Assembly: GCA_963714085.1 (NCBI GenBank)
Contig: OY970229.1
Span: 100,849-164,848 of the forward strand
DNA from: an uncultured Candidatus Micrarchaeota archaeon
Lineage (GTDB): Archaea > Micrarchaeota > Micrarchaeia > Anstonellales > Bilamarchaeaceae
DNA length: 64,000 nucleotides
Direction: 5' to 3'
Part shown: one piece after another, positions 2,511 to 50,418 of the stretch
Numbering within the stretch: the first letter of the stretch is position 1
Layout: every line of letters starts with the position of its first letter
Notes under the pieces: generated by a model
Told to the model about the DNA's origin: nothing
The model's database searches: none
The model's input: the letters and a program-made list of their open reading frames with translations, nothing else
Translations under genes and position numbers: made by a program

Positions 2511-5500
2511 GTGAAGCTCCTTGTTTCTGAGAAGTTGGTTTCGTTTGCAAGGTCGGTGCAGTTTATGAACCAGTTGTGATAGCCGTCTGCGATGCCTAAA
2601 AGCGGGAAGTCGGTTGCCGTGCTGTTCTGGGTAGTCGCATTCGTCTGGTTCAGGTTCCCGTCCAGGTATAACGAGCAGCTCAGGGTTGGATAATAGTCGT
2701 CGCTCGCATTGAATGCGAAGTCGATCGAACCCGAGTTCGTGATATAGGCATCTGGCGGGAACATGAGGTTGATCGTCGGTATGGTTGTGACATTGTTTTG
2801 CAGTATACCATAGGTGCTTGACGGGATCAGGCCCGTGAAGCCGAGCGTGTCCGCGACGGTGTCGGGGGTGTTGTTCAGCCTGGTCCAGCCTGAGGCGTCG
2901 GACTCCCAGAGCTCGAATTTGGTGTCGTTGTATCCGCTAAGCTCGGAATCCTGCCAGCTCCAGGTAACGGAATCGATGGAAACGCCCGCGCTCTGGTTTT
3001 TTATGTCGACGAATTTGTTGAAACTGATGGGAGCGCTGGCAGGCAGCGCGGTGGAGTTCCTGCTCCAGTTTATCGTGTAGGACTCCCCGCCTGCCGCGAG
3101 GGAATCGTTTATTGATAGCGAGGTGTTGGCCATGGAGCCGGACGGGTCCAGGAAGGTCGTGTTTGCCATGTTGTAGGTGACGCCGTTGTTGCTGTAGGCA
3201 TAGAAGTCGTAGTCGTTCCGGAAGAGCGTGGTGTTCCAGAACTGGTTCCCGGCCGAGCCGCCGAACTGGCTTATTATCGCCATGCCATATGCGGGATTGC
3301 CTGGAGAACCGGTATTGTTGTACGCGCTGTTCCCGATGAACGTATTGCCGTTGGCGTCGAAAAGCCGGAAGCCGTACTGCGTGTTGTTGTACGCGTTGTT
3401 GTAGAGGTAGGTGTCATTGGTGCAGCTGATGGCGAAGCCGTACAGCGTGTTGTTGTACGCGTTGTTCCCGGTGAAGGTGTTGTTCTCGCATGAGATGAGA
3501 TGGAAGCCCTCGCTGCCGCCGGAGACGTTGTTCCCGCTGAAGGAGTTGTTGTTCGCGAGCCCGCCCAGGTAGAAGCCGTAGTCCGCGTTCCCCAAGACGA
3601 CGTTGTCCGTGAACGTGTTGTCGGAGGCGCCGGATTCGATGCGGAATCCGGCATAGGAATCGTTATACACCGTGTTGCCGCTGAAGATGCTGGCCGAAGC
3701 GCCAGAGGCGTAGAAGCCGTTGAAGCACTGGGATACGGAATTGTTGGAATAGACGTTTCCGGTCCCGAGCGAGGCGATGCAGGTATCGGTGTCGTTGTAC
3801 ACGCTATTGTTGGAGATGTCGCCTCCTGAGAGGGAACCCGTGTAAATGCCGTAGTAATAGCCGCTGATTCCTGCGCAGTTCTCCACCGTGACGTTGGTGA
3901 GCGAGCCGTTGATGGCTATGCCGAAGGTCGTCCCTGCGGTGCCGTTGTTGGCTATGCTGTAGCCGTTGCAGTCGAAGACCACGTCGGATGCGGCTATTTT
4001 CACGCAGACCGTGCCGCTCAGCTCCGGAGCGCCGTTCGGCGCCCCGGTGTAGTTCATGTCCTGGGTGTATGTTCCGCTCTCGTTGATGACCGGGCAGTTG
4101 ATGGTGCTGTTCCCGAATATGCCATAGTCGCTTCCAGGAGAGAGATCAGTCAAGGCTAAGGTATCCGAAGAGAGGTCGGGGGTGACGTTCAGCGGGGTCC
4201 AGCCGCTGGAGTTGTACACCCACAGCTGGAAAGTGCTCTGGTCGTATCCGTTGGCTTCCCCATCGGTCCAGCTCCAGACGATGCTGTCGATGGACACCGG
4301 GGGGCTTAACGCGGAGATGTTCACGAACGTCTGGGCGAAGGGCTGGTAGGGGGGCGCGGTCTCGTTGGCCGTCCAGTTTATGGCGTATTCCTCGCCGTTG
4401 TTGACGATGTCGTTGATGCTCAGGTTGGTGAAGTTCTCCATCGAGCCGGTCGGGTTGTCGAAGACGATGCCGGAGAGGTTGATCGTGATAGGGGGGCCGG
4501 AATAATCCGCCACGTCCAGGTCATAGCCGTTGTTGGACAGGTATTGGCCCGTCACAGAGGTCTGGTCGGAGCCCATGGACAAGCCGACATGTGAGTTGTT
4601 GGTAGCGCGGTTGTCATCCATGGAATTATTGGTCCCGGATATCGTGATGCCGGTGTGACCGTTGTTGTCGGCGCTGTTGTTGGACAGGCTGTTGTTGCCG
4701 CCATAGAGCCCGATGCCGTCCCATGCGTTGTTGTCAGCGCTGTTGCCGTACAGGGTGTTGTTGTCGCCACCGAGCCCGATGCCGTCATCCCCGTTGTTGT
4801 CGGCGCTGTTGTTGGACAGGGTGTTGTTGCCGCCACTGAGCCCGATGCCCTCGTAAGACTCGTTGTCGCAGCTGTTGTTCGTGATGTTGTTATTGGAACC
4901 TGTGATCTCAATTCCGAGGTTATTGCCGTCCAAGTCATTATTATATATGGCAGTATTGTCCGTTGGAGGAGAACTGGAGTGGATGCCACCATAACTGTTA
5001 TTGTTGACGCGATTGCCGGATATCGTCTCCTGGCTCGAATTATCGAGCGCGATGGCGTCTTCGTTGTTGTATATGCTGTTGTCATCAAGCGTATTCTGGT
5101 CCGATGAGGAATAGAGGGCGATGGCCGAGTAGCCGCCGTTGGTGAACGTGTTGTTGGCGATGGTATTGTTGCTCGAGGTATCGAGCACGAGGCCGATGTT
5201 GCTGTCGTTGCTCACGCTGTTGTTATACAAGGTATTGTTGTTGCTCCCGAAACCGAAGAAGATGCCGTAATCGTTGTTGTGGTCGATGCTATTGTCGTAT
5301 ATGACATTGTTGCTCGATGAATCGGTGTCGTTATTGTAACCGCCCAGGCCGATGCTGTAATCACTGTCGTAGTCGAGATGGTTGTCGTATATGCGGTTGT
5401 TGTTGGATTTGTTGAGGTATATGCCGTTCGCGTTCGAGAAGCTGTTGTTGGAGAAATCATTGCCATGCAGGGCGTTACTGTCCGATGAATCGAGCACGAT

Positions 5501-6715
5501 GCCGGCACCGCGGTTGTAGTACGCGTTGATGTTCGTGAATTCGCTGCCGTCGGACTGGTTGGCGTAGATGCCGTCTTCGTATCTGGATATCCAGGGGCAG
5601 TTCTCCACCGTGACGTCTGTGAGGGGCCCGACCAGCAGGATGCCGTAGGTGGGGCCGCCGGTGCCGCCATTGGTGATGCTGTGGCCGTTGCAGTTGTAGA
5701 CGACGTCGGAGGCCGTGATCTCCACGCAGGCCGAGCCGGCGAGCGGAGACGCATCGTTCGGTTCACCGACGTAGTCCATGCCCTGGGTATAGGTGCCGCC
5801 CGAGCTGATGACCGGGCAGCCAACGGAGATTATGCCGCCCTGGAGTATGCCGTACTCGCCCGCCGGAGTGAAGTTCGTCAAGGCCAAAGTGTGCGAAGAT
5901 GTGTCCGGGGTCTCGTTCACCACGTACCAATACCCTCCGTAGAGACCGTTCCAGAGGCTGAGGTTGCTCTCGTTGTATCCTAAGGCTTCCGTGGCGGTCC
6001 AGCTCCATACTGCGCTGTCGATCGTCAGCGGGGGGGAGGCGTACAAATCGATGCGCACGAACTTCTGGATGAAAGACTCGCGGGGAGTCGGGGTATCATT
6101 GGCCATCCAGCTGATGGAGAAGCCTCCGACGTCGTTCAAGGTGTCGTTGACGCTCAGATTCGTGTAGTTCTCCATGGTGCCTGAAGGATTATCGAAGATC
6201 ATGCCGGATAGGCTGACCGAGAACGGGTTGCCGATATCGTCATGGACTATCAGGTCGTTGGTGTTGTTGGAGAAGTACTGGCCCTGCACCACGGTCTGGT
6301 CGGAGTCCTGTATATACAATCCGGTATTGGAATTGTTCATTGCTGCGTCATTGATCAGGCTGATGATTGCTGACTGGTAGACGAAGATGCCATTGGAGTA
6401 GCCGGAAATCCCCGGGCAGTTCTGTATCGTGACGTTGCTGACCTCCGAGGGGACCGCGATGCCGTAGGTGGTGCCGCCCGTGCCGTCATTTATTATGTAG
6501 TGGCCGTCGCAGTCTAAGACGACGTCAGAAGCCAAGATCTTCACGCAGGCCAAGCCGCCATCGGGCATCTCTGAAGCGCTGTTGGGGGCTCCGGTCAGGT
6601 CCGCCGTCAGCGTGTAAGAGTCAGAGGCGCTTATCACCTGGCAGCTTCCGATTCCGGTCGGGTACGATACGCCCATCAGGAGCAGGAACACCACGAGGAC
6701 AAAAATGGATTTCAT
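1..6715 (-). CDS. Giant secreted surface/adhesin-like protein, partial (C-terminus beyond position 1). Domain order: signal peptide, three NosD-like right-handed beta-helix modules each followed by a WSW-containing beta domain, then at least 10 tandem 80-aa HYR/Ig-like repeats.
   Basis: My own translation of the minus strand gives an uninterrupted frame from ATG at 6715..6713 (MKSIFVLVVFLLLMGVSYPTGIGSCQ...) to position 1, more than 2,230 aa. The motif C[VT][KE]I.ASDVV.[DN]C[DN]G[HY]SI.N.GTGG.TYGI recurs three times. Stretches of NNS/NNT beta-helix rungs (NosD/pectin-lyase-like) follow. The repeat unit ...TVNCNATDIYGNTANASFRVTENPG... is HYR-like. N-x-S/T sequons are abundant. It is absent from the supplied ORF track only because no stop lies inside the window. 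A TATA-like ATTAATAAAG sits about 25-35 nt upstream. Confidence 0.8.
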   Translation of the reverse strand, partial: MKSIFVLVVFLLLMGVSYPTGIGSCQVISASDSYTLTADLTGAPNSASEMPDGGLACVKILASDVVLDCDGHYIINDGTGGTTYGIAVPSEVSNVTIQNCPGISGYSNGIFVYQSAIISLINDAAMNNSNTGLYIQDSDQTVVQGQYFSNNTNDLIVHDDIGNPFSVSLSGMIFDNPSGTMENYTNLSVNDTLNDVGGFSISWMANDTPTPRESFIQKFVRIDLYASPPLTIDSAVWSWTATEALGYNESNLSLWNGLYGGYWYVVNETPDTSSHTLALTNFTPAGEYGILQGGIISVGCPVISSGGTYTQGMDYVGEPNDASPLAGSACVEITASDVVYNCNGHSITNGGTGGPTYGILLVGPLTDVTVENCPWISRYEDGIYANQSDGSEFTNINAYYNRGAGIVLDSSDSNALHGNDFSNNSFSNANGIYLNKSNNNRIYDNHLDYDSDYSIGLGGYNNDTDSSSNNVIYDNSIDHNNDYGIFFGFGSNNNTLYNNSVSNDSNIGLVLDTSSNNTIANNTFTNGGYSAIALYSSSDQNTLDDNSIYNNEDAIALDNSSQETISGNRVNNNSYGGIHSSSPPTDNTAIYNNDLDGNNLGIEITGSNNNITNNSCDNESYEGIGLSGGNNTLSNNSADNNGDDGIGLGGDNNTLYGNSADNNAWDGIGLYGGNNSLSNNSADNNGHTGITISGTNNSMDDNRATNNSHVGLSMGSDQTSVTGQYLSNNGYDLDVADYSGPPITINLSGIVFDNPTGSMENFTNLSINDIVNNGEEYAINWTANETAPPYQPFAQTFVNISALSPPVSIDSIVWSWTDGEANGYDQSTFQLWVYNSSGWTPLNVTPDLSSDTLALTDLSPGSDYGIFGNSTINCPVINESGTYTQDMNYTGAPNGAPELSGTVCVKIAASDVVFDCNGYSIANNGTAGTTFGIAINGSLTNVTVENCAGISGYYYGIYTGSLSGGDISNNSVYNDTDTCIASLGTGNVYSNNSVSQCFNGFYASGASASIFSGNTVYNDSYAGFRIESGASDNTFTDNVVLGNADYGFYLGGLANNNSFSGNNVSGGSEGFHLISCENNTFTGNNAYNNTLYGFAISCTNDTYLYNNAYNNTQYGFRLFDANGNTFIGNSAYNNTGSPGNPAYGMAIISQFGGSAGNQFWNTTLFRNDYDFYAYSNNGVTYNMANTTFLDPSGSMANTSLSINDSLAAGGESYTINWSRNSTALPASAPISFNKFVDIKNQSAGVSIDSVTWSWQDSELSGYNDTKFELWESDASGWTRLNNTPDTVADTLGFTGLIPSSTYGILQNNVTTIPTINLMFPPDAYITNSGSIDFAFNASDDYYPTLSCSLYLDGNLNQTNATTQNSTATDFPLLGIADGYHNWFINCTDLANETNFSETRSFTVDTIPPVISGISNITQTATNLTNNVTYSPTAKDEYNVSVPVICNPVSGSMFPIGNTTVNCNATDIYGNTANASFRVTENPGTTPPTISGISNINDTATNYTGSTETYSPTATDEYNVSVPVICNPVSGSMFPIGNTTVNCTATDIYGNQANESFNVTENPGTVAPIISGISNINDTATNYTGSTETYSPTAKDEYNVSVPVICNPVSGSMFPIGNTTVNCTATDIYGNQANESFNVTENPGTTPPTFSGISNINDTATNYTGSTETYSPTAKDEYNVSVPVLCTPVSGSLFPIGNTTVNCNATDIYGNTANASFRVTENPGTTPPTISGISNITQTATNLTNNVTYSPTATDEYNVSVPVICNPVSGSMFPIGNTTVNCNATDIYGNTANASFRVTENPGTTPPTISGISNITQTATNLTNNVTYSPTATDEYNVSVPVICNPVSGSMFPIGNTTVNCTATDIYGNQANESFNVTENPGTVAPIISGISNINDTATNYTGSTETYSPTAKDEYNVSVPVLCTPVSGSLFPIGNTTVNCNATDIYGNTANASFRVTENPGTTPPTISGISNITQTATNLTNNVTYSPTAKDEYNVSVPVLCTPVSGSLFPIGNTTVNCNATDIYGNTANASFRVTENPGTTPPTISGISNITNTATNLTNNVTYSPTAKDEYNVSVPVLCTPVSGSLFPIGNTTVNCNATDIYGNTANASFRVTENPGTTPPTISGISNINVTTATSNGTIETYAPTAKDEYNVSINVSCVPPSGSMFPIGTTPVNCSATDPYGNTANASFNVTVNPIIAPLTLSPSSVAQGQSLNGTITGLAPISPFGSVIISTTY

Positions 6716-39637: not shown

Positions 39638-40906
39638 TCACTTCTTCGAGCGTATCCCCTCAAGGACCTCCTTGGCGAAGTCCGAGCCGAAGTTCTTCTT
39701 CTCAGCGAGCTCCGCGGCGACCGCGTCTATCTCCTGGGGGGTCTGCGCCCCGGCTATCACCGCGACGTTCTTCGCATGGAGCTTCATGTGGCCGGCCTGT
39801 ATGCCGACGCTGCTCAATGCGGCCAGCGCGGCGAAGTTGTTCGCGAGGCCGACGCACGCGCACGCCATGGCCAGTTCCTTGGACGTCTTTATCCCGGCTA
39901 TCTTGAGCGCGATCCTGGCTGTCGGGCTGGAGTTCACCGCGCCTCCGACCGTGGCGACCGCCATCGGCAATTCGATGCTTCCGAGCAGGTCGCCCTTCTC
40001 CGTCGCCTCGTAGCGCGTCAGCGGATGGTACTCGCCCATGGACGCGTAGGCGTGCGCCCCGGCCTCCACGGCGCGCCAGTCGTTGCCGGTCGCGAGCACG
40101 ACCGCGTCTATCCCGTTCATCACGCCCTTGTTGTGGGTCGCGCAGCGGTAGATGTCGGCTTTCGCGAGCTCGTAGCCGTCCAGGATGCCCTCGACGACCT
40201 TGTCGCCGATGACGCCCTTCTTCCAGACCGCGGACGCGCGGACCTTGCGCTTCACCGCGAGGTTCGTGATTATGCGCAGGCACACCCTGCCGTTCGTGAG
40301 CGTCGCGAGGGTCGGGGCCACGCCCTCGAGAGTGGTGTTCACCATGTTCGCGCCCATCGCGTCGCTCACGTTTATGTCGAACTCCACGAGCAGCATCTTC
40401 CCCCTCCGGGTCTCGAGCGCCCTCTCGCGGAAGCCGAGCACCTTGCCTCCCCACCTCTCGTGGGGCTTCATGTACTCGGCGGCTATCTTGATTATCTCGT
40501 GCCTGTTCGTGTCCAGGTTCCTGATCGCCAGGTCCATGTCAGGCACGTCCATGAGCTGCACCTGGCCTGTCATCACCGGCTCCTCGGCCTCTGCCTTGAA
40601 CCCCTCGGGCAGGCAGAGCTTGGCCGCCCTGCACGCCGCTGCTATCACCGAGGGCTCCTCCAGAGCCATGGGGATGACCAAAGACTTGCCGTTTATCTTG
40701 AAATTAGTAGCCATGCCGAGCGGCAGGTGGACCGCGCCTATCACGTTCTCCACCATCCGGTCCGCTAATTCCGGCTTGAGCGCGCCCATGTCGCTGAGCG
40801 CTGCCATCTCCTCGTCCGAGACGCCGGAATTCTCCTTTATCAGCTTCCGCCTCTCCGGAATAGTGAGCTTGTAAAAGCCTGAAAAGTCAGCCATGGTGCG
40901 ATTCAT
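39638..40906 (-). CDS. hmgA: Hydroxymethylglutaryl-CoA reductase (class I, NADPH)
   Basis: ELPMAVATVGGA, GANMVNTTLEGVAP and DAMGANMV-type motifs. The start is at MNRTMADF. The 160 codons upstream in the track ORF are Arg/Ala/Pro-rich and non-coding. Confidence 0.9.
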   Translation of the reverse strand: MNRTMADFSGFYKLTIPERRKLIKENSGVSDEEMAALSDMGALKPELADRMVENVIGAVHLPLGMATNFKINGKSLVIPMALEEPSVIAAACRAAKLCLPEGFKAEAEEPVMTGQVQLMDVPDMDLAIRNLDTNRHEIIKIAAEYMKPHERWGGKVLGFRERALETRRGKMLLVEFDINVSDAMGANMVNTTLEGVAPTLATLTNGRVCLRIITNLAVKRKVRASAVWKKGVIGDKVVEGILDGYELAKADIYRCATHNKGVMNGIDAVVLATGNDWRAVEAGAHAYASMGEYHPLTRYEATEKGDLLGSIELPMAVATVGGAVNSSPTARIALKIAGIKTSKELAMACACVGLANNFAALAALSSVGIQAGHMKLHAKNVAVIAGAQTPQEIDAVAAELAEKKNFGSDFAKEVLEGIRSKK

Positions 40907-40917
40907 CTCCAAAGAAG

Positions 40918-41373
40918 TTATAAACTGTAGCTGTCCTCGAGTTTTTTCAGCGCTGCGTCTATGTTCCCGAACGCGGAATCCGCCTTGCGGAAGTAGAAAT
41001 CGCGGAACAGGGAGTTGAGGCTCTTGCCCTCGTCCTCCGAAAGCGCGTAGCGCCCCTTCTTCCTTGTGAGCATGCCCGCGTTCTTGAGCCTCAGCAGGTG
41101 GTAGTACACCGCCTTGGCGTTCGGCTTGGCGCGCGTCTCTGCCTCCAGCCGGTCGAGTATGTCCTTGGTGGTCGGCGACTCCTTCCTCACGTGGAAATAC
41201 AGCAACGCGTCGAACACGTCGAGGAGCAGCGTCCTGGACTCGTTTGGCAGTATGAGCCCCAGCGAGAGCGCGACCCAGCGCACCAGCGACTTCCGCGCGA
41301 GCAGCACGTCCTGGGGGAGCGCCATGTCCCGCAGCACGAGCTCCGACCTTATGAGCCTTGATTCTGGAATCAT
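40918..41373 (-). CDS. Winged-helix (MarR/PadR-like) transcription regulator
   Basis: YYHLLRLKNAGMLTRKKGRYALSEDEG is a recognition helix plus wing. It lies upstream of hmgA on the same strand, with an 11-nt gap. Confidence 0.55.
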   Translation of the reverse strand: MIPESRLIRSELVLRDMALPQDVLLARKSLVRWVALSLGLILPNESRTLLLDVFDALLYFHVRKESPTTKDILDRLEAETRAKPNAKAVYYHLLRLKNAGMLTRKKGRYALSEDEGKSLNSLFRDFYFRKADSAFGNIDAALKKLEDSYSL

Positions 41374-41449
41374 GTTTGAATCTCCATGCCATACAATAAA
41401 AACCTTATCAATCACGTTAGTAACCAGATGGAAGGCGGGTTTTGAGAAA

Positions 41450-41821
41450 ATGGTCAACTTCGACGTTGTGACGCATCCGGACGTGGTGTTCGCCTATTCC
41501 CCTAATTATGTCGAGAGCACGATAAAGGTGAGCAACCCGGTCGGCGAGGCGTCCTGGGCAGAGGCCGACGTCTACGTCCCGAGCAAATTGTCCCTCAGCC
41601 CTGACAGCATGCTCAGGAAGGGGAGGATACGCGTCGGCGTGGTGGAGAAGAGCGAGACCAGGGAGAAGGCCGTGCGCATATACGCGAACCCGTATACCAG
41701 CCCCCAGGTCTACAGGTGCAAGATCGTGCTCTACATCTACAGCAAGGACGGCGTCATCGCCTCGCGGCTGGAGAAGGCGATGGACATACGGTGCGAGATG
41801 AAGAAGGCCGACACGATCTGA
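41450..41821 (+). CDS. Hypothetical protein (123 aa)
   Basis: MVNFDVVTHPDVVFAYSPNYVESTIKVSNPVGEASWAEADVYVP... The upstream part of the 235-aa track ORF is antisense to the regulator gene and Ser-rich. Confidence 0.4.
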   Translation: MVNFDVVTHPDVVFAYSPNYVESTIKVSNPVGEASWAEADVYVPSKLSLSPDSMLRKGRIRVGVVEKSETREKAVRIYANPYTSPQVYRCKIVLYIYSKDGVIASRLEKAMDIRCEMKKADTI

Positions 41822-41824
41822 TCC

Positions 41825-42328
41825 TCACTTAGCCGGGCGCCTGGAGCGGCGTGCGTAGCTCTTCGCGTAATCCTTCTTCGTGTTGAACTGTATCAATGAT
41901 TCCGTCTGGGCCACGGTGTCGAACGTCCTCAGGTATCCGAATATGAAGTCGCTCAGCTCGTCGTTGTCCCGCACGCGCACCTTTATCAGGAAGTCGAACT
42001 GGCCCCCGGTCACGGCCATGTCCTCCACTGCCTCCTGCTTCGGCGCGTCCTCGAGCAGCTCGTTGTAGTCGGTGCCCGCCTTGCACCGGATCAGGATGTA
42101 TGCGATCGTCTTCTTCCCCAGTTTCTCGTAGTCCAGGACCGTGACGAACTTCTTGATTATGCCCTCCTTGATGAGCTTCTTGAGGCGCCGGTTCACGGTC
42201 GCGACGGGTATGCCGGTCTTGCGCCCGATCTGCCTGCTGGATAATCTCGCGTTGTCCTTTATCGCATCTATTATCTCCAGGTCTATCCGGTCGGGTTCCA
42301 TAATTTGATTCATTTGTACCATACGCAT
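41825..42328 (-). CDS. lrp: Lrp/AsnC family transcription regulator
   Basis: The HTH is DLEIIDAIKDNARLSSRQIGRKTGIPVATVNRRLKKLIKEGII. The C-terminal RAM domain has FDFLIKVRVRD. The start may be the internal MEPDR Met (42298). Confidence 0.85.
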   Translation of the reverse strand: MRMVQMNQIMEPDRIDLEIIDAIKDNARLSSRQIGRKTGIPVATVNRRLKKLIKEGIIKKFVTVLDYEKLGKKTIAYILIRCKAGTDYNELLEDAPKQEAVEDMAVTGGQFDFLIKVRVRDNDELSDFIFGYLRTFDTVAQTESLIQFNTKKDYAKSYARRSRRPAK

Positions 42329-42431
42329 TATAAAATATGCTGCTTTTGCGCCTTTTGAGCCATTTTCGTGAGGAATAATTTATATAACTCATCCAAAGCA
42401 TGAGTTGGATTATGAAAAAGGAGGTGGGGAT

Positions 42432-43985
42432 ATGGTTTTGCTGAGCGAACTGAAAAAAAAGCGGGGATCCAACGATACGGGATCGCAGAGCCGGGTTCCG
42501 CCGGGAAACTCCCTGGAGCGCGATCGGAATTATGTTAGATTCGTCAAATTGCCCACGAGCCTGCTCAACGAACCTGCGACTGGAAGCGCTGCGAAACCGA
42601 CGAAGGAGACGCTTAACGCAGAGCTCCTGGATGCCGTCGAGGCGAGGAATCTCAATGCCGTGAAAAGGGCGCTGGACGGCGGGGCGGATCCCAACACGAA
42701 GGGCTTCATGGGGCGTTCGGTATGGAATATCGCCGATGGCAACGGCTACGGAGAGATCGCAGACGAATTGAAGAGCCGCGGGGCCATCACCGCTCCAGAC
42801 GAGCCAGGACGTGAGATCCCGGACTCCACGGTCCAGCAGCTTTGCATAAAGAGCCTGTTGCAAACGCCGCAACCTCCGGCTGCACCGTCCCTTGCTGCGG
42901 AACCGCCGATGTGCCTGACTCCTGCGCCGGTGGGCGCGGTGAGCGAGGACGGGGACGACGAAGCCGGCATATACAGGTTCGGGGCGCTCCGCAGAACGCT
43001 CAGAGAACTGGCATCGAGCAGGATGACGGCACTTTATACTGGACTGATGGCTGGGATACTCGGCTTGGCTGCCGCCCATGGAATCTCGAACAAGATCGAC
43101 GAACACCGCTCCGCGAAAGCCGAGATGGTGGGCCGGAAGGCCCCGGAAGCGTCTGCCCGGGCCGAGAAACCAAAGGCTCCGATAACTGAGCAGGAACTGA
43201 GGGCGAACAACAAAAAGCTCATCGATGCGGTGCGGGGAGGCGATGAGGGTTCCGCATGGGGCGCTTACCAAGACGGGGTGAGCAGGGAAGCGGTGAACGA
43301 AGCACGGCGGCTCGCTGCGTTGGGTAAGAACGAGAAGATGCTGAAATTAACATATGATATACGCGAGCGTATGCGCGTCCTGGATCCGGACCAGGCCAAA
43401 CCGCAGTACGATGGGAAAAATGAGAACAACGCAGACCTCATCAGGGCCGCGCATCCGGTGCTAATCCCCAGGGATACCTACTGGGACTGGAAGACCGGCC
43501 CCATAAAGCGCGCTCTGAGTAAGGGAACGAGCAAGGAAGCGTTGTCCGACGCACTGCTGACGGTTACGGCGTACAATCCACCAGACAGGTTGAAGCCCGC
43601 CAGGATGGAGATCGCGTACCTGATCGCGCAGCGCATGGAGCCGATGGCCGAACCCGGAGCCAAGGCGGAAGGGAAACCGAAGGACCCGCAGCAGGCTGAG
43701 CCGAAGGAGGCTTCTCGTGCCCAGCCGGTTCCAAAAACCCCAGGGGCATCGCTCGCGCCCGGAGAGAAACAGGAGCTGCGCGGATCTTACGGCATCAACA
43801 TGCCCGGGGGGAAGGCAGCCGAGAGCCAGCATGCGGCGACGGCCCGGGGCAGGGCGCTCACGCCCGGAGAGAAGCAGAAGCTGCGCGAAGAGCTCGGCGA
43901 TGCCATGAAACGGGACGATGGGGAGGCAGTTAATAGGATACTGAAAAAAGCCGGTTTGGGTTCCCGGATACCTACGGCTGAGTAG
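42432..43985 (+). CDS. Ankyrin-repeat-containing membrane protein (Pro/Ala/Lys-rich low-complexity C-terminal half)
   Basis: An SD-like AAGGAGGTG lies 5 nt before the ATG at 42432. LNAELLDAVEARNLNAVKRALDGGADPNTKGFMGRSVWNIA is an ANK repeat. MTALYTGLMAGILGLAAAHG is a TM helix. Confidence 0.6.
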   Translation: MVLLSELKKKRGSNDTGSQSRVPPGNSLERDRNYVRFVKLPTSLLNEPATGSAAKPTKETLNAELLDAVEARNLNAVKRALDGGADPNTKGFMGRSVWNIADGNGYGEIADELKSRGAITAPDEPGREIPDSTVQQLCIKSLLQTPQPPAAPSLAAEPPMCLTPAPVGAVSEDGDDEAGIYRFGALRRTLRELASSRMTALYTGLMAGILGLAAAHGISNKIDEHRSAKAEMVGRKAPEASARAEKPKAPITEQELRANNKKLIDAVRGGDEGSAWGAYQDGVSREAVNEARRLAALGKNEKMLKLTYDIRERMRVLDPDQAKPQYDGKNENNADLIRAAHPVLIPRDTYWDWKTGPIKRALSKGTSKEALSDALLTVTAYNPPDRLKPARMEIAYLIAQRMEPMAEPGAKAEGKPKDPQQAEPKEASRAQPVPKTPGASLAPGEKQELRGSYGINMPGGKAAESQHAATARGRALTPGEKQKLREELGDAMKRDDGEAVNRILKKAGLGSRIPTAE

Positions 43986-44004
43986 CCGCGCGGGGTTTAC
44001 GGAT

Positions 44005-45609
44005 ATGGCCAGGCATAAGGCCGGAAGGCTCGGCTTCCAGCAATCACGCATGGTTACGCCCCCTGCAGGCGCTTTCAGTCCGTATCTGGCAGGGCCGGAC
44101 ACGGGGATGCGGACCGGCGCGCCTCACGGATCCGTGCCGGCGAAGCGCTTGTGGAGGCGCCGCATGCTCGGCCCGGTCGCCGGCCTCATGCTGGGCGCGC
44201 TTTTTGTTTGCGGGATACAGGGCGGGGCGCAGGGGCGCACGCACCATGGGATGCGCGCGGACGGCCTGCTTTCCGAGGCTCTTGTCATGGCGGTAATGGA
44301 CAAACATGCCGCCATAGCGGAGATGCTCCTCAAGCGCGGGGCGGATGCGAACGCAACCGGTCCTTTCAACAAGACCGTCCTGATGTGGGCTGCGGAAAAC
44401 GGGGATGTAGAGACGGTGAACCTGCTCTTGGACCGCAATGTCGACGTGAACCTCAAGGACACCTGGTTCAGCGGCACCGCGCTGATGCGGGCCGCGGAGA
44501 GGGGCCACGGCGAGATCGTGGACCTGCTGCTGAGCAACTATGCGGATGTCAATGCCAGGAACAAGAACGGCGATACCGCGCTGACCTTGGCGGTCAGAAG
44601 CGGGAGTCCGAGGGTGGTGAACAGCCTGATCGTCGGAGGGGCAGAGATAGACGCCAAGAACGCCAACTGGGACACCGCACTGGGCCTGGCGGTGAAGAAG
44701 CCGGACGAGGCCCTCGTAGACCTGCTGCTGAGGAAGGGGGCAGACCCCAACGTGAGGGACAGATCCGGCGTCAGCCTGCTTGAGATCGCCTCTGCGACCG
44801 GGGACAGGAGGGATGTCACGCTGCTGATACGGAACGGGGCCCGCGTAGATCCGAATCTGAAGGACACGGTCACCATGTGGAACGCCTACCAGAAGAGGAG
44901 GACGGCGATAGAGCGGTCCGAGAAGCCTGGACTGGGCGAGAAAGACGACGGGGAGACCGCGCTCAAGCGCGCGTACGGAGAGCTGGTCATAGGCGAGAAA
45001 GAGGCGCTGGAATTGCACGAGAGGTTCGGGATAGAGGAGTTCGACAGGTATCCCAAAGGGGTGCTCGAGAGCATGTACGCTAACCTCGGCAGGCAGGCCG
45101 CCAGGCCGCCCATCCTCCACGTAGTCGCGAGATCGGATTACAGCGGCGCGGTCTATGACTACATCGGCTGGGTGTTCAAGCTGGACCATTACAAGGCGTT
45201 CATAGCCGAAGCGGAAAGCGTGGTGGACCTACGGTCCCGGGTGAGGTATACCGCAGAGACCTACGGCAGGATCGAGTCGATGGTGCTTGGGGGCCATGGC
45301 GAGAAGGACAGGATACAGCTCGGATACAAGGAGAATGGAGGAATCCTCACGCTGCGCGATGAGAACGACATCGCGCAGCTGAAGCCGTATTTCGTGAGCA
45401 ATCCGACCATCGTGATCGACGCGTGTTCGACCGGGGAAGACGAGATGGCCATAGCCGCCATGTTCTCGAGGGCGCTCGATGCGACCGCGTTCGCACCGGT
45501 CGCGGTCGCGGAGTTCCGTGGATGCGAAGTGGACGACCAGGGAAGGATAACCGGGGCGCGCTTCGACGTGCCGACCGCCAAGTTCGTGAGCGGCAAGCTG
45601 GTGAAGTGA
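44005..45609 (+). CDS. Ankyrin-repeat protein with a C-terminal CHAT/caspase-like (C14-fold) peptidase domain
   Basis: At least five ANK repeats (GADANATGPFNKTVLMWAAENGDVETVNLLL..., TALMRAAERGHGEIVDLLL..., DTALTLAVRSG...). A C-terminal His motif VLGGHGEKDRIQLG and Cys motif IVIDACSTGED match the GHG...L.L.D / D-A-C-x-G dyad of CHAT/caspases. The N-terminus has a hydrophobic segment. Confidence 0.55.
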   Translation: MARHKAGRLGFQQSRMVTPPAGAFSPYLAGPDTGMRTGAPHGSVPAKRLWRRRMLGPVAGLMLGALFVCGIQGGAQGRTHHGMRADGLLSEALVMAVMDKHAAIAEMLLKRGADANATGPFNKTVLMWAAENGDVETVNLLLDRNVDVNLKDTWFSGTALMRAAERGHGEIVDLLLSNYADVNARNKNGDTALTLAVRSGSPRVVNSLIVGGAEIDAKNANWDTALGLAVKKPDEALVDLLLRKGADPNVRDRSGVSLLEIASATGDRRDVTLLIRNGARVDPNLKDTVTMWNAYQKRRTAIERSEKPGLGEKDDGETALKRAYGELVIGEKEALELHERFGIEEFDRYPKGVLESMYANLGRQAARPPILHVVARSDYSGAVYDYIGWVFKLDHYKAFIAEAESVVDLRSRVRYTAETYGRIESMVLGGHGEKDRIQLGYKENGGILTLRDENDIAQLKPYFVSNPTIVIDACSTGEDEMAIAAMFSRALDATAFAPVAVAEFRGCEVDDQGRITGARFDVPTAKFVSGKLVK

Positions 45610-45642
45610 TTCTTCGGATATCCGAACGTTGATGCCACGGAA

Positions 45643-45894
45643 GTGACCATCATGGGAACTGGGGCGGGTGGACGGCGGGGCAGGTACATCGGGATAATGC
45701 GGCGGCTGGAAGAGGGATACGGCGCCGTGAAAACCATGGAGGGCTACGAGGCGGTCTTCAGGGAGCAGCTGGGTGCGGTGAGGCGCATGAGGGACAGGAA
45801 GGCGCTGAGAAGGCTGGATGCCTGCATCAATTCCGTCCTGAACGCCAGGAAGGAGGCGCTGGACAGGGTGTCGCAGAGGGCCAAAAAACCGTGA
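45643..45894 (+). CDS. Small hypothetical protein (83 aa)
   Basis: Helical, Arg/Glu-rich. It is followed immediately by an inverted repeat and T-tract. Confidence 0.35.
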   Translation: MTIMGTGAGGRRGRYIGIMRRLEEGYGAVKTMEGYEAVFREQLGAVRRMRDRKALRRLDACINSVLNARKEALDRVSQRAKKP

Positions 45895-45913: not shown

Positions 45914-46139
45914 CGTTGGAAGTGTCCCTGATACAAACATTTATATATTTCGCGTTTGTTACCAACCATCCCCATGTGAAAAGTTGTGCAGGTGACCAGT
46001 ATGTTCGGTTGGATATTGAAGACGAATTGGGATATAGGAAGGATAATGAGGTACTACAGGCAGCACAGGCGCATGCGCTCCTGAATCTGCCGATCTTCAT
46101 TCTTTTTTCCGTTCTTCCAGCCTTGCCCTTACGCGATTT

Positions 46140-46880
46140 TCACGCCGTGGTCCTGCGGTCTCCGGTGAGCCTCAGTTTCTCCGCCAGCAGCGGGACGCGG
46201 AGCGTCTTCACGCCCCTCGGATGGCTGCGGCAATTGGTGTCCGTATCCACGATTGCGCCGTGCTGTATATGGTCCAGCGCATCGAGAAGCTTCGCTTTCG
46301 CGGGCTTGTCGTGCCCCAGCCTCTCCATATTCCTCTGCAGCGCAGGGACCGCGATGGCATCGAACCTCTCCTCGCGGGAATCGAGCTCGGAGCGGGGCCA
46401 GTCCAGACGCACGGCCCTCACCAGCTCGGCGCATCTCTGCGCGATGATCGGCTCGTCCGAGAGGCCGTTTATGACCACTTCCATCTCGCCATCGGTCCTG
46501 CGCAATCCCCTCTGCAACGCGGTCTCCAGCGCGCCCAGCGCCGCCAGCCTCAATCCCGCTTCATCCGGAGCCGTCTTTTCCCCGGCGTAGCGCACGACCG
46601 TCCGCATCACCCCGGCGGATTCAAGGAGGCTCATCGCCGGCAGGTAGTCCCGGGCGGAATCGATGCTTTCCATCTCTCCGGTCGGCGCGTCCATCTGCCC
46701 GATCCGCGTGTCCATCTCCCTGAGGACGAAGGCCTTGCCGGAAGCGTCCAGGGCCAGCTCGGACAGCGCCTTGAGGAGCTGCGTGGCCGAAGCGCTGCGG
46801 ACCGCGAGCTCGAAATCGCCCTCGAAATAGGGTCTGACCGTTTCCCATGGATGTTTGTAAAAATTCTTCAGATATTCCAT
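46140..46880 (-). CDS. Hypothetical helical protein
   Basis: The N-terminus MEYLKNFYKHPWETVRPYFEGDFELAV is protein-like. Overlapping plus-strand ORFs are R/P/H-rich antisense artefacts. Confidence 0.45.
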   Translation of the reverse strand: MEYLKNFYKHPWETVRPYFEGDFELAVRSASATQLLKALSELALDASGKAFVLREMDTRIGQMDAPTGEMESIDSARDYLPAMSLLESAGVMRTVVRYAGEKTAPDEAGLRLAALGALETALQRGLRRTDGEMEVVINGLSDEPIIAQRCAELVRAVRLDWPRSELDSREERFDAIAVPALQRNMERLGHDKPAKAKLLDALDHIQHGAIVDTDTNCRSHPRGVKTLRVPLLAEKLRLTGDRRTTA

Positions 46881-46967: not shown

Positions 46968-47363
46968 TCACGCTTCTATCCTTCCCTTGTCGGCGTCCAC
47001 TTCGACCCGCATCCCGTCCTTGAGTTCCTTGAAGACGTCCTTCTCGGGCTTGTCCACCATGGGTATCTTCGAGATTATGGCGCCCACCGCGATTATCGGC
47101 TCGGCCGAGACGTTTATTATGGCCGCCGGAGCCTTGCCGTTCTTCGCGAGCTGGAGCATGACGTACGAGCCGACCGTGGAGCCCTTGCCGTTCGGGAAGA
47201 CCAGCACCTTGCCTGCGACGTTCTTCCCTTCCAGGGGATGGCCCTTCTCGATGATGACGCCGGTCTCCGGGTCCACGCCGCCGAGGAATCCTATCGGCGC
47301 GTGGCTGATGAGCGCCTCGCCCGAGGCCTTGCCGCGCGATATGCTCCTGGCCTTGATGTCCAT
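46968..47363 (-). CDS. Phosphomevalonate dehydratase small subunit (AcnX-type, DUF126)
   Basis: MDIKARSISRGKASGEALISHAPIGFLGGVDPETGVI...VLVFPNGKGSTVGSYVM is the DUF126 core. The start was moved to the internal Met. ATGA overlap with the upstream membrane-protein gene. Confidence 0.75.
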   Translation of the reverse strand: MDIKARSISRGKASGEALISHAPIGFLGGVDPETGVIIEKGHPLEGKNVAGKVLVFPNGKGSTVGSYVMLQLAKNGKAPAAIINVSAEPIIAVGAIISKIPMVDKPEKDVFKELKDGMRVEVDADKGRIEA

Positions 47364-47927: not shown

Positions 47928-49109
47928 TCACCTGAACAGTATGTCTTCCAGATCGCCGAACGCGACCTTCTGCTTGCAGAGGTTCGGGAGGTAGGCGGCC
48001 GCCTTGCCGGAGTTCGTGCCGGTCACGACGTGGCCCATCTCCTCCAGCGGGCAGACCACCATGCAGGTGTCCGCGACTATCAGGCCGCCCGCGCCTTCTA
48101 TCGCCTTCCTGTAGCCGAGCCTGTCAGCCTCCTTCCTGAGCTTCCCGGACGTGCACACCCAGAACTCGCAGGTGGGCTTCCTTTCGGAGACGAGCTCCGC
48201 GACCTCTTTGATCTCTTCGAGCGATGCGTGCGGGCATCCTATGGTCACCAGATCCGGCTTGAGGCCGCTGTCCAGCCCCTTCCTGGAAGCGGACAGGTCC
48301 GCCTCCGTGAATTCGATGCGCTGCGCGTCCTGCGCAACGCTCCATTCAGGAGTGATGCCTTCCATGAAGAACAGCGGCACGGAGCCCGTGGCTGCCATGG
48401 ACGCGCCCAGGACTTTCAGCATGTGCTCGCCCGCTCTCTTTATCCCGCGGAACGCGGGATACTTGTTCTTCGCCATCTTGCCCACTGCGGAACCTATGGC
48501 GCCGAAATCCGCCATGGACTTGAGCTCGCAGCGCACGTCAATGAGTACGTCCGCCACGCGGTTCTCCTCCATATGGAGGCCGTAATACGGCGTCACTCCG
48601 CATATGGCCGCAGCCAATGCGCTCGGCCCGCCCTCGCGGTTCGTCCTCGCCCCGAGCACGGAGTTCGCGAACGCTATGGCGCTGGATTCTGACCATGCCA
48701 CGTGCTCGCCCTTCCCCGGGCGTATGCCTATGAAATACGGCGCGCAGGTGCAGGTCTTCATTATGCCCATGCTGGAGTACGCGTCCAGTATGGCTATCTG
48801 TTTTTTCGCGAAATCCTCCGGTATCTTCATCTCCCTCCACTGCTCCCTGTCCATTCCGGCGGGATTCAGGAACGATGGAACAACGGTCTTCGCGCCCTTG
48901 GAGGAGAGATCCTGGAGGTATTCCAATCCAGCGTCTCCGATCGTCTTGTACGATACTCCGGCTATCTGGGCGCTGGTGACCGGGATCATTTTTTGCGCGC
49001 CGTATATGTTGCCCAGTGCGACGAGGATCTCCATGGACTGCCGTGCGGCCTCGCCCAGTTCACCGTCATACATCTTCTGCTCTTGCTTCTTTAGGAGCAT
49101 CGGGTCCAC
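47928..49109 (-). CDS. Phosphomevalonate dehydratase large subunit (aconitase X catalytic domain, DUF521)
   Basis: AcnX signatures KTCTCAPYF and DTCMVVCP (cysteine ligands). 393 aa. It is adjacent to the UbiD/UbiX homologues as in archaeal alternative mevalonate pathway clusters. Confidence 0.8.
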   Translation of the reverse strand: MDPMLLKKQEQKMYDGELGEAARQSMEILVALGNIYGAQKMIPVTSAQIAGVSYKTIGDAGLEYLQDLSSKGAKTVVPSFLNPAGMDREQWREMKIPEDFAKKQIAILDAYSSMGIMKTCTCAPYFIGIRPGKGEHVAWSESSAIAFANSVLGARTNREGGPSALAAAICGVTPYYGLHMEENRVADVLIDVRCELKSMADFGAIGSAVGKMAKNKYPAFRGIKRAGEHMLKVLGASMAATGSVPLFFMEGITPEWSVAQDAQRIEFTEADLSASRKGLDSGLKPDLVTIGCPHASLEEIKEVAELVSERKPTCEFWVCTSGKLRKEADRLGYRKAIEGAGGLIVADTCMVVCPLEEMGHVVTGTNSGKAAAYLPNLCKQKVAFGDLEDILFR

Positions 49110-49110
49110 A

Positions 49111-50418
49111 TCAGATATAGCGGCTGGGGTCGACGGCCATCCACCCCGCCTTGTCGAAGTTCTTGCCGTGCGCCACCAGCGGCTTCGTGGCGTCCACGCC
49201 CATCTTCGTGGTCGCGTAGGTGTGCGGGTCCGCGCTCGGGTCCAGCGACGAGCCCTTCTCGTTCCTCTTTATGAGCAGGGACTTGTCCGCTTGCACCCTT
49301 GTCGCGATCGCCCATTCCACGGACGAGGGGTCGTAGATGTCTATGTCTTCGTCCACTATCACCACGTGCTTGAGGGACTTGTGGCCGTGGAACGCGGCCT
49401 CTATGGCCTTCCTGCCGTCGTCGTCGCCCCTCTTCCTTATGGAGACCACAGCGTGGAGCCAGGAGCACCCGCCCGGGGTGATGTTGACGCCCCTGCAGTC
49501 GCAGACCTTGCCCACTTCGTTGAATATCGTCGGCTCCCTCGGCATGCCCATGAGGAGCTTGTGCTCCAGGGCGCCGGGAAGCAATGCGTGGAATATCGGG
49601 TCCTTGCGGTGATGCATCTTCGTTATCTTCATGACCTGCTGCTTGCGCACTATGTCATAGGTCTCCGTGAGGTCTATGAACGGCCCCTCGTCCGCCAGCT
49701 CGTTCGTTATCCTCCCCTCGAACGCGAACTCCGCATCGGCCGGGACCTCTATGCCGTTGCCCAGGCGCACTGTGCTCACCGGCGCGAGCGAGTTTGCGAC
49801 CTGGAGCTCGTCCTTCCCCAGCTCCGTGGACGTCGCCCCTGCGAGGAGCACGTTTATCGGAGCGCCCACCACGAACGCGACGTCGAGCTCGCCGCCCGAC
49901 CTTTTCAGGTATTCAGCCAGGTGCCTGGGCAGTATCCTCATGACGACCCTGTCCTTCCCTATCACCATCATCCTGTGGAAGGAGCAGTTCCTGCCCAGCC
50001 CGCTGTCGTTGGCGATCACGACCGCGGACGCGAAATACGGGCCGCCGTCCTTTTCGGCATGGAACGGAATCGGGAGCTTGCCCAGATCGACCTCTTTCTC
50101 GGTCACTTCGAGCACCGGGCCGGTGGAGACGACTTTCGGATTCGTCGGATTTTTTATCGCTTCCGCGAGCCTTGGCATGAGCTCCTTCTCCTTTATGCCC
50201 AGGTATCTGCACACCAGCGCGCGCGTGGAGAATAAATTCCCCGCGACCCTCGCGCCGGGATTCTCGGCTATCTTGTCGGTGTAGACCGGCCTTCCGTCCA
50301 GGGCCTTGAGCACGCCTGCGAGCTCCAGCCGCTTCGACACCGGTTTTTTTAGCTCCACGAGCGTCTTCTCCTTCCTCAGGAGGTCTATGAAATCGCGGAA
50401 CGACATCATGCTTTCCAC
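49111..50418 (-). CDS. UbiD-family decarboxylase (probable trans-anhydromevalonate 5-phosphate decarboxylase)
   Basis: UbiD-family length (435 aa) and core motifs. Its start overlaps the ubiX stop by 13 nt. Confidence 0.75.
   Translation of the reverse strand: MESMMSFRDFIDLLRKEKTLVELKKPVSKRLELAGVLKALDGRPVYTDKIAENPGARVAGNLFSTRALVCRYLGIKEKELMPRLAEAIKNPTNPKVVSTGPVLEVTEKEVDLGKLPIPFHAEKDGGPYFASAVVIANDSGLGRNCSFHRMMVIGKDRVVMRILPRHLAEYLKRSGGELDVAFVVGAPINVLLAGATSTELGKDELQVANSLAPVSTVRLGNGIEVPADAEFAFEGRITNELADEGPFIDLTETYDIVRKQQVMKITKMHHRKDPIFHALLPGALEHKLLMGMPREPTIFNEVGKVCDCRGVNITPGGCSWLHAVVSIRKRGDDDGRKAIEAAFHGHKSLKHVVIVDEDIDIYDPSSVEWAIATRVQADKSLLIKRNEKGSSLDPSADPHTYATTKMGVDATKPLVAHGKNFDKAGWMAVDPSRYI

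Follow-up and report, generated by a model that had tools for sequence, protein, structure and literature searches.

A putative membrane-anchored ankyrin-repeat protein with a predicted clan CD peptidase domain in an uncultured Candidatus Micrarchaeota archaeon

Results

Organization of the P1-P2-P3 gene cluster

The gene cluster described here is located on a stretch of 64,000 nucleotides (nt) from an uncultured Candidatus Micrarchaeota archaeon (contig OY970229.1 of assembly GCA_963714085.1, positions 100,849 to 164,848 of the forward strand; referred to as the window). The product of its second gene, P2, might be a membrane-tethered cysteine peptidase with the caspase-haemoglobinase fold (MEROPS clan CD), a reading to which a probability of about 0.5 is given, and its function would probably be ankyrin-guided proteolysis at the membrane. 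The interval 42405-45894 (+ strand) harbors three consecutive, co-directional open reading frames (ORFs), while an earlier note, made on this DNA from the sequence alone, had counted two genes. P1 (42432..43985, +; 517 amino acids, aa) is a predicted single-pass membrane protein, as judged from its ORF, its orthologues and the confidently modelled parts of an AlphaFold2 structure. P2 (44005..45609, +; 534 aa) is composed of a putative N-terminal anchor, six ankyrin repeats and a C-terminal domain assigned to clan CD, an organization derived from the ORF and its orthologues. P3 (45643..45894, +; 83 aa) is a small, basic, helical protein with an uncertain start (GTG 45643 or ATG 45652). The gap between the P1 stop and the P2 start is 19 nt in the window and 18 nt in a related genome (L004, see below). 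The exact 534-aa product of P2 is present in a public protein collection, as is the sequence of P1. The long N-terminus of P2 appears to be translated, since the similarity to the orthologue in a second related genome (L005) begins already at residue 16.

Fold and putative catalytic residues of the P2 C-terminal domain

The C-terminal domain (aa ~316-534; 44950..45606, +), delimited by HMMER, AlphaFold2 and Foldseek, consists of three helices followed by an alpha/beta core. The AlphaFold2 model, built with a 34-sequence alignment, reached a predicted local distance difference test score (pLDDT) of 95.3 and a predicted template modelling score (pTM) of 0.92. The top match of this model in the PDB (Foldseek) was 9qpe_G, i.e. 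Tce1 of the H3 type VI secretion system (T6SS) of P. aeruginosa, a DUF4347 protein (E=7.2e-6, TMt 0.64, 15% identity). Further matches were legumain (E=1e-4), the activated SAVED-CHAT protein 8tl0_D (E=2e-4), CED-3, a coral caspase and caspase-8 (E=2e-4 to 8e-4) as well as MALT1 (E=1.9e-2, rank 44). The Foldseek probabilities of these matches ranged from 0.87 to 1.0, and the top 13 PDB matches all belonged to clan CD (0.98-1.0). Among the viral models of BFVD, the named matches were giant-virus caspase, C14 and clostripain proteins. Taken as a model-based assignment, it is strongly supported that the last ~220 residues of P2 adopt the alpha/beta fold of MEROPS clan CD.

The positions of the putative catalytic residues in the model are in line with this assignment. 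According to DSSP, H431-G432 follow the strand 104-110 and C474 follows the strand 144-153 (model numbering). The predicted catalytic His431 (codon 45295..45297, +) is part of a GGHG motif within LGGHGEKDRIQLG, located after a strand, and the predicted nucleophile Cys474 (codon 45424..45426, +) is part of a DACSTG motif within IDACSTGE, located after the next long strand. This order, with the His after one strand and the Cys after the next one, corresponds to the dyad arrangement of caspases, legumain, CHAT and C80 proteins, which is likewise strongly supported by the model.

The register of the two residues was compared with those of known proteins. The best sequence match of the family profile in the PDB was again 9qpe_G, where IGGHG...LG of the profile is aligned on IATHG...LG with the His at chain residue 77; this residue is His186 if the 201-residue chain represents Tce1 110-310. 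In the literature, His186 and Cys240 of Tce1 were placed on the catalytic dyad of TcdB (PMC13323088). An hhalign comparison of the family profile with caspase-3, the sequence of which was verified against the PDB, was non-significant (probability 0.6%) and was used solely for the His/Cys register; in the sole alignment obtained, the first strands are paired, and H431 and C474 fall on His121 and Cys163, respectively. The spacing between His and Cys is 43 residues in P2 and 42 in caspase-3, and by published numbering it is 45, 50 and 54 in the cysteine protease domain (CPD) of TcdB, in Tce2 and in Tce1, respectively (PMC13323088).

A family without a profile of its own

An exhaustive HMMER search with the domain in 1.84 billion representative sequences retrieved 694 proteins at E<=1e-3, 177 of them at E<=1e-10 and 17 at E<=1e-30. 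In alignments of this family, R348, D378, E402, H431, G432, G440, D452 and C474 were invariant. Counted over 153 domain copies, the His was retained in 151, the Cys in 149, the Arg in 149, Asp378 in 148 and Glu402 in 152. Substitutions of His and Cys were confined to the two additional, degenerate copies found in P0002, which has three domains, and the two remaining exceptions for Cys are truncated copies which stop short of the Cys column. H431 and C474, both of which had been pointed out in the earlier note on the basis of their motifs, are therefore essentially invariant, and together with R348, D378, E402 and D452 they are almost invariant across several hundred sequence clusters. The C-terminal domain is also the best conserved part of P2 (78% and 54% identity to the two orthologues, the ankyrin region reaching 63% and 53%).

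The relationship to described families is distant. For aa 290-534 of P2, no match was obtained in Pfam (scanned at E<=1) or NCBIfam, and a phmmer search of the domain against the sequences of the PDB gave nothing meaningful. A word-indexed protein search found no homologue with the C-terminal domain as query and two proteins only with the family profile. The CHAT profile (PF12770) did not match P2 at E<=1 or any of 54 family members at E<=0.01, and Peptidase_C14 (PF00656) matched neither P2 nor the 54 members. The only recurrent link was to DUF4347 (PF14252), which matched 27 of the 54 members at E<=0.01 (best 3.7e-7) but not P2 itself. These matches span the core from His to Cys (profile positions ~19-128 of 164). 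When ten members were scanned singly, DUF4347 matched eight of them with 16-22 bits, compared to a gathering score of 24.6. Since the DUF4347 matches fall below the cut-off, the domain family seems to be related to, but separate from, DUF4347. Peptidase_C80 (PF11713) matched two of the 54 members (E~5e-4) and not P2. Judged by sequence, the domain thus represents a large family which lacks a dedicated model in Pfam and NCBIfam and is neither CHAT nor C14; no literature on this family was found. The caspase- or CHAT-like domain proposed in the earlier note is consequently borne out at the level of the fold, by the AlphaFold2 model and its structural matches to caspases and SAVED-CHAT, but not at the level of family membership, where both profiles remained without a match.

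The domain is found at the extreme C-terminus of almost all members (the median distance to the end of the protein being 4 residues), and the protein lengths range from ~150 to 2182 aa. Ankyrin repeats are restricted to the three P2 orthologues. Some other members contain helical repeats with NPNF-like motifs (at least two motifs in 14 of the 150 listed), and from sequence most members appear to carry the domain fused to the C-terminus of helical rather than ankyrin repeats. All members with an organism name (P0006, P0024, P0142 and L004) are assigned to Ca. Micrarchaeota, and the sampled genomic contexts look archaeal, with genes for an archaeal threonyl-tRNA synthetase editing domain, diphthamide synthase, CDC48, CdvB and PAC2.

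Three members deviate in architecture or context. A second family member of the genome studied here, P0060 (L008 971-2560), is encoded on the same contig but outside the window. It has no ankyrin repeats or membrane segment, the domain is internal rather than terminal (aa 145-346 of 529), and the tail behind it is charged and resembles a coiled coil; the neighboring genes encode TatD and a NYN nuclease. P0002 (1291 aa, from a Logan contig) contains three tandem domains; His and Cys are replaced in the first two (T/D and A/A) and retained in the third, an arrangement of pseudo-protease plus protease. In L001, a separate ankyrin protein of 333 aa (5278-6279) is encoded 2 kb upstream of P0004 on the same strand, and P0004 itself has no ankyrin repeats. 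This neighborhood may be a coincidence or a split version of the ankyrin/domain pairing.

Anchor and ankyrin repeats of P2

The only strongly hydrophobic 19-mer of P2 comprises aa 54-72 (44164..44220, +; mean Kyte-Doolittle hydropathy 1.79). It is directly preceded by KRLWRRR, and a block LMLGAxxVCG...HHGMR, at and after the segment, is kept in all three orthologues. Cys69 within the segment is also kept in the orthologues and is located in a lipobox-like context (LFVC). The segment might serve as a signal anchor or be part of a signal peptide with Cys69 as lipobox-like cysteine. The most likely topology would be N-in/C-out, with the ankyrin and protease parts being extracellular. In the wider family, an N-terminal hydrophobic segment was found in only 19 of 150 representatives, and because of this low number a membrane or extracellular setting seems to be specific for the P2 subfamily.

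Six 33-residue ankyrin repeats follow at aa 85-282 (44257..44850, +), as defined by Pfam profiles and the repeat register. Ank_2 (PF12796) matched with E=1e-39 (135.4 bits, cut-off 27.3), Ank (PF00023) with E=3.7e-33 (112.1 bits, cut-off 21.1) and Ank_4 with E=1.8e-24, so that the ankyrin repeats noticed earlier in the second gene are clearly present. The P2 orthologue of L004 has four instead of six repeats, with 67 aligned residues (approximately two repeats) missing. The NCBIfam and PADLOC matches of P2 (Legionella Ank effectors, MzaA, PDC-M72A) were restricted to the ankyrin region and far below the respective cut-offs.

P1, a putative membrane partner

P1 was listed in the ORF table from TTG 42405. 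Its start is most likely ATG 42432, since this codon is preceded by the putative expression signals GGAGGTG (Shine-Dalgarno, 42420-42426, +) and TATA-like TTTATATAA (42379-42387, +). The protein had no match in Pfam (E<=1), NCBIfam or PADLOC, and a hidden Markov model made from the repeats of P2 scored it at 0.3 bits. An ankyrin-like module of approximately two repeats (aa 58-118; 42603..42785, +) was recognised via an orthologue and the structural model. The orthologue P0161 of L005, which has an extra repeat, matched Ank_2 over the aligned region (9.3e-13, 49 bits), and a P1 paralogue in the same genome reached the cut-off of Ank_4. The AlphaFold2 model of P1 had a mean pLDDT of 56 with confident islands at aa 55-120, 250-405 and 478-506, the remainder (<50) being predicted as disordered. 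The first island consists of confident helix pairs, and the Foldseek matches of P1 were all ankyrin proteins, among them DARPins, ANKRA2 and CLPB (ANK domain), with local alignments of 52-68 columns, an rmsd of 0.9-2.4 Å (~1 Å for DARPins and ANKRA2) and 31-41% identity. The ankyrin repeats that the earlier note had assigned to the first gene as well are thus probably present as approximately two degenerate copies, but they are undetectable by profile in the window copy itself.

A transmembrane segment is predicted at aa ~198-220 of P1 (43023..43091, +; Kyte-Doolittle 19-mer mean 1.49) and is flanked by the motif YRFGALRRT, which is kept in most orthologues. The other parts are disordered linkers rich in Pro, Lys and Glu and a C-terminal helix hairpin. 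According to the model, P1 would be a single-pass membrane protein with approximately two degenerate ankyrin repeats and a helical domain. This single hydrophobic segment agrees with the membrane-anchored ankyrin partner proposed earlier, while the anchor of P2 itself had been overlooked.

Conservation of the locus

P1 and P2 are found at the same chromosomal position in three independent genomes, namely that of the window, L004 (CAILMQ010000013, uncultured Candidatus Micrarchaeota archaeon) and L005 (a 500-kb JGI contig). The number is three rather than five, since the DNA of L009, which was returned by a scan of metagenome proteins, is 100% identical to L005, and the P2 and P1-like proteins of L003 are 100% identical to those of L005. 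A scan of genome contigs with the single domain found no relative, and with the alignment of the three orthologues it found one genome, L004. P2 is 66% identical over aa 16-534 to its orthologue in L005 and 42% identical to that in L004. The P1 orthologues, which adjoin P2 in both genomes, share 39-41% identity, and P1 therefore diverges faster than P2 in the same genome pairs (39-41% versus 42-66%). In L004, an orthologue of P3 (56-64% identity) lies 5 nt downstream of the stop codon of P2; P3 is not present at the L005/L003 locus and has no family match in Pfam, NCBIfam or PADLOC. The notion of a self-contained module can hence be kept for P1 and P2, which are conserved together in three genomes, while P3 is present in two of them.

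The gene order is syntenic on both sides. Upstream, the genomes share genes for a glycosyltransferase, HMG-CoA reductase (39638-40915, -), a small helix-turn-helix (HTH)-like protein, a 123-aa protein, and an Lrp/AsnC-family regulator (-), followed by P1 and P2. The Lrp/AsnC gene (41825..42328, -; Pfam HTH_24 4.3e-16, AsnC_trans_reg 1.4e-10) is divergent from P1 and found at the same position in L004 and L005; it belongs to the context and is a possible regulator of the cluster. Among the proteins conserved in the three genomes are those of 165-179 aa (40918-41457, -), of 123 aa (41450-41821, +; 97% identity over 66 aa) and, downstream of P2, of 242-246 aa (46140-46880, -; 52% identity to L005), none of which has a Pfam match. 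The latter is followed by aconitase X, UbiD and related genes. In the window these encode the small (46968-47363, -) and large (47928-49109, -) subunit of aconitase X and a UbiD-family enzyme (49111-50418, -), which, like HMG-CoA reductase, were assigned by a Pfam scan of the neighboring genes. UbiX-like and kinase-like ORFs are located next in L004. The flanking genes resemble a mevalonate pathway set of the archaeal type that is interrupted by P1-P2-P3. No gene related to defence, CRISPR, cyclases or secretion systems adjoins the cluster according to the neighbor scan and PADLOC. A recent horizontal acquisition of the cluster was rejected, as its G+C content (0.59-0.62) is similar to that of the remaining window and the locus is syntenic in the relatives.

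The locus of L005 also differs in two other respects. A duplicated segment (L005 8616-10208, also L003 1-1372) consists of the 3' end of the gene for the 123-aa protein and a P1-like gene, and results in a chimeric ORF of 140 aa and a P1 paralogue of 355 aa directly upstream of P2. In this paralogue, a pair of ankyrin repeats can be recognised, and there are two hydrophobic segments. Directly after P2, a gene for a NosD-like, beta-helix, surface-type protein is inserted (L005 12255-14252). Paralogues of the latter with 34-46% identity, apparently several in tandem, are encoded in the window ~40 kb upstream (2500-6650, -).

The 3' end of the cluster and a conserved downstream element

An A6-stem-T6 element overlapping the stop of P3 (45883..45910, +) was considered as a possible transcription stop on the basis of sequence and folding. 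The hairpin has a free energy of -17.4 kcal/mol and is no better than shuffled sequences (z=+0.7), and a scan for consensus terminators found nothing after the operon. The strong terminator claimed in the earlier note is therefore reduced to a weak hairpin and a T-run, although the T6 run plausibly acts as an archaeal termination signal. In L003 (the organism of L005), the sequence from ~45881 onward directly follows the P2 stop.

Further downstream, positions 45925-46110, located between P3 and the convergent gene, are nearly invariant across the three genomes, while the flanking proteins are merely 45-70% identical. The stretch probably represents an unannotated microprotein gene. It contains a micro-ORF of 27 aa, MFGWILKTNWDIGRIMRYYRQHRRMRS, identified by comparison of the genomes (46001-46084, +; L005 12023-12100, L004 6802-6885), which is accompanied by a TATA-like TTTATATA (45944-45951) and an AGGTGA Shine-Dalgarno sequence; a GGCAGC...GCUGCC hairpin with a T-rich tail is located downstream. 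This reading is based on the differences between the genomes, which are synonymous or consist of an in-frame deletion of 6 nt. A non-coding RNA in the near-invariant 150 nt was rejected, because Rfam gave no match, the folding z-scores were ordinary and the substitutions of the coding type. When 26 nt of this conserved element were used to scan metagenomes, nothing was retrieved.

Discussion

Proposed function of P2 and alternative explanations

In the mechanism proposed for P2, Cys474 would act as the nucleophile and His431 as the general base, and D378 would be the Asp completing a D-H-C set as in C80 domains. The six ankyrin repeats would recruit a protein substrate or partner, and the N-terminal hydrophobic segment would hold P2 at the membrane with the ankyrin and protease parts most likely outside the cell. 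P1, encoded just upstream, could be the partner, a regulator or the substrate of P2.

Several observations weigh against a membrane-tethered peptidase. P2 itself matches no protease profile, the DUF4347 scores of singly scanned members are all below the cut-off, and the hhalign comparison with caspase-3 is not significant (probability 0.6%). The predicted topology relies solely on a window of hydropathy and on the positive-inside rule, and the low share of family members with an N-terminal hydrophobic segment speaks against a general role at the membrane. P3 and the Lrp regulator are not present at every locus. Moreover, the nearest solved relative, Tce1, is without demonstrated activity (PMC13323088).

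The alternative with the best support, tenable but doubtful, is a cis-acting self-processing module. Like a C80 domain, P2 would cut its own chain, perhaps after an activating signal, so that the repeat region or the domain itself is set free from the anchor, and have no other substrate. The weak links of the family to the Peptidase_C80 profile and the structural comparison of Tce1, the top structural match, with the TcdB CPD by the authors of that study (PMC13323088) are in favor of such a module. The strictly C-terminal position of the domain on a variable N-terminal "cargo" also resembles the architecture of toxins. The spacing of D378, H431 and C474 is similar to that of the D-H-C set of TcdB (Asp587/His653/Cys698). 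On the other hand, ankyrin and helical repeats typically bind substrates or partners, and a phenotype is described for one relative only, Tce2, which acts in trans on a eukaryotic cell (PMC13323088). Cleavage of a specific partner in trans is thus weakly favored over self-processing.

The clan CD fold also includes transamidases. P2 could therefore be a transpeptidase or ligase of the GPI8 or legumain type, or another thiol enzyme which attaches or modifies surface proteins. Legumain is among the best structural matches, and P2 appears to be a membrane-anchored protein whose catalytic part is probably extracellular. However, the likeness to GPI8 and legumain is limited to the fold (9-11% identity, rmsd 9-10 Å) and most family members have no membrane segment, which makes this explanation improbable.

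The earlier note had suggested a defence module in analogy to Craspase. In such an anti-virus or abortive-infection system, a sensor-activated protease would kill the cell, as with Craspase (TPR-CHAT) or SAVED-CHAT. P2 shares the combination of repeats and a clan CD domain with these systems, its fold resembles SAVED-CHAT (8tl0_D, E=2e-4), and PADLOC reported PDC-M72A and "Ankyrin". These PADLOC matches cover the ankyrin part and leave the protease domain untouched, and the CHAT profile is unmatched in P2 and its 54 relatives. The neighborhood comprises mevalonate pathway and other housekeeping genes and includes no gene for a sensor, cyclase, SAVED, CRISPR or gRAMP component. The locus is at a fixed chromosomal position in three genomes with ordinary G+C content rather than variably present, and other family members are encoded singly in housekeeping contexts. 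A role in defence is accordingly considered very improbable.

A catalytically dead scaffold, which would only bind other proteins, is the least probable explanation: P0002 does contain two extra copies without His and Cys, but P2 retains every invariant residue, and the conservation of His and Cys in essentially all single-copy members at a divergence of ~30% identity points to selection on catalysis.

Host interaction, which the earlier note had also considered, is a possible role. A wider scenario can be put forward, which is speculative and rather unlikely as it stands. Ca. Micrarchaeota are thought to live attached to other archaea. The family could comprise caspase-fold proteases which have expanded in Micrarchaeota (DPANN) on interchangeable helical "NPNF" or ankyrin repeats and are used as host-directed effectors. 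P1 and P2 would then be anchored at the surface at the site of host contact, with the fast-evolving P1 as co-receptor or substrate.

Clan CD proteases serve as switches in many processes: caspases and metacaspases in cell death, separase in cell division, C80 domains in the activation of toxins and CHAT proteases in CRISPR and CBASS immunity. To our knowledge, very little is known about clan CD proteases in archaea. The membrane-anchored ankyrin form P2 is a clonable candidate for studying the handling of surface or partner proteins. The P2 family also provides DUF4347 and the Tce effectors with an archaeal sister group, which could help to define their chemistry. Even if P2 were an ordinary housekeeping peptidase, the annotation would be useful for ~700 orphan clusters.

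Comparison with known systems

The closest known proteins are those with DUF4347, in particular the H3-T6SS effectors Tce1 (PA0256, PDB 9QPE chain G) and Tce2 of P. aeruginosa. They are putative cysteine proteases and resemble the P2 domain in having a His...Cys pair within a compact core of ~200 residues. Tce1 gave the best structural match, DUF4347 is the only recurrent profile link, and the HG motif of the P2 family falls on the predicted catalytic His186. In contrast to DUF4347 and Tce proteins, the P2 family has an additional conserved N-terminal unit of three helices with an invariant Arg. It is archaeal and not proteobacterial, the domain is located C-terminal to ankyrin or helical repeats, and there is no T6SS or Hcp context as for Tce1.

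The Peptidase C80 domains of MARTX toxins, TcdA and TcdB belong to the same clan, have a similar spacing (43 residues in P2, 45 in TcdB) and are likewise appended to modular "cargo"; an invariant Asp after the first strand is common to C80 and the P2 family. The defining properties of C80 domains are the activation by inositol hexakisphosphate and the cleavage after Leu. Unlike the toxins, P2 is archaeal, has no known eukaryotic host and no significant profile match to C80.

CHAT proteins such as Craspase TPR-CHAT/Csx29 and SAVED-CHAT share with P2 the clan CD fold and the combination of protein-binding repeats with a protease. The P2 domain comprises ~220 aa, whereas the chain of the matched CHAT protein has 478 residues, and no CRISPR or CBASS partner gene is located beside P2. 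With caspases, metacaspases and legumain (C14, C13), P2 has the fold in common, including the placement of His-Gly and Cys behind two successive strands, but the sequence match of the domain is non-significant, PF00656 does not match, and no p20/p10 organisation or dimerisation is apparent.

The ankyrin part finds its counterpart in the Ank/Leg effectors of Legionella, where an ankyrin targeting module is fused to an enzymatic domain, the same logic as in P2. The models of AnkY, AnkH and AnkG matched P2 with 57-72 bits compared to cut-offs of 500-600, which reflects the generic repeat only, and P2 has no secretion-system context. Set beside these systems, the P2 domain is a new family, and its combination with ankyrin repeats a new fusion, within a well-known protease clan.

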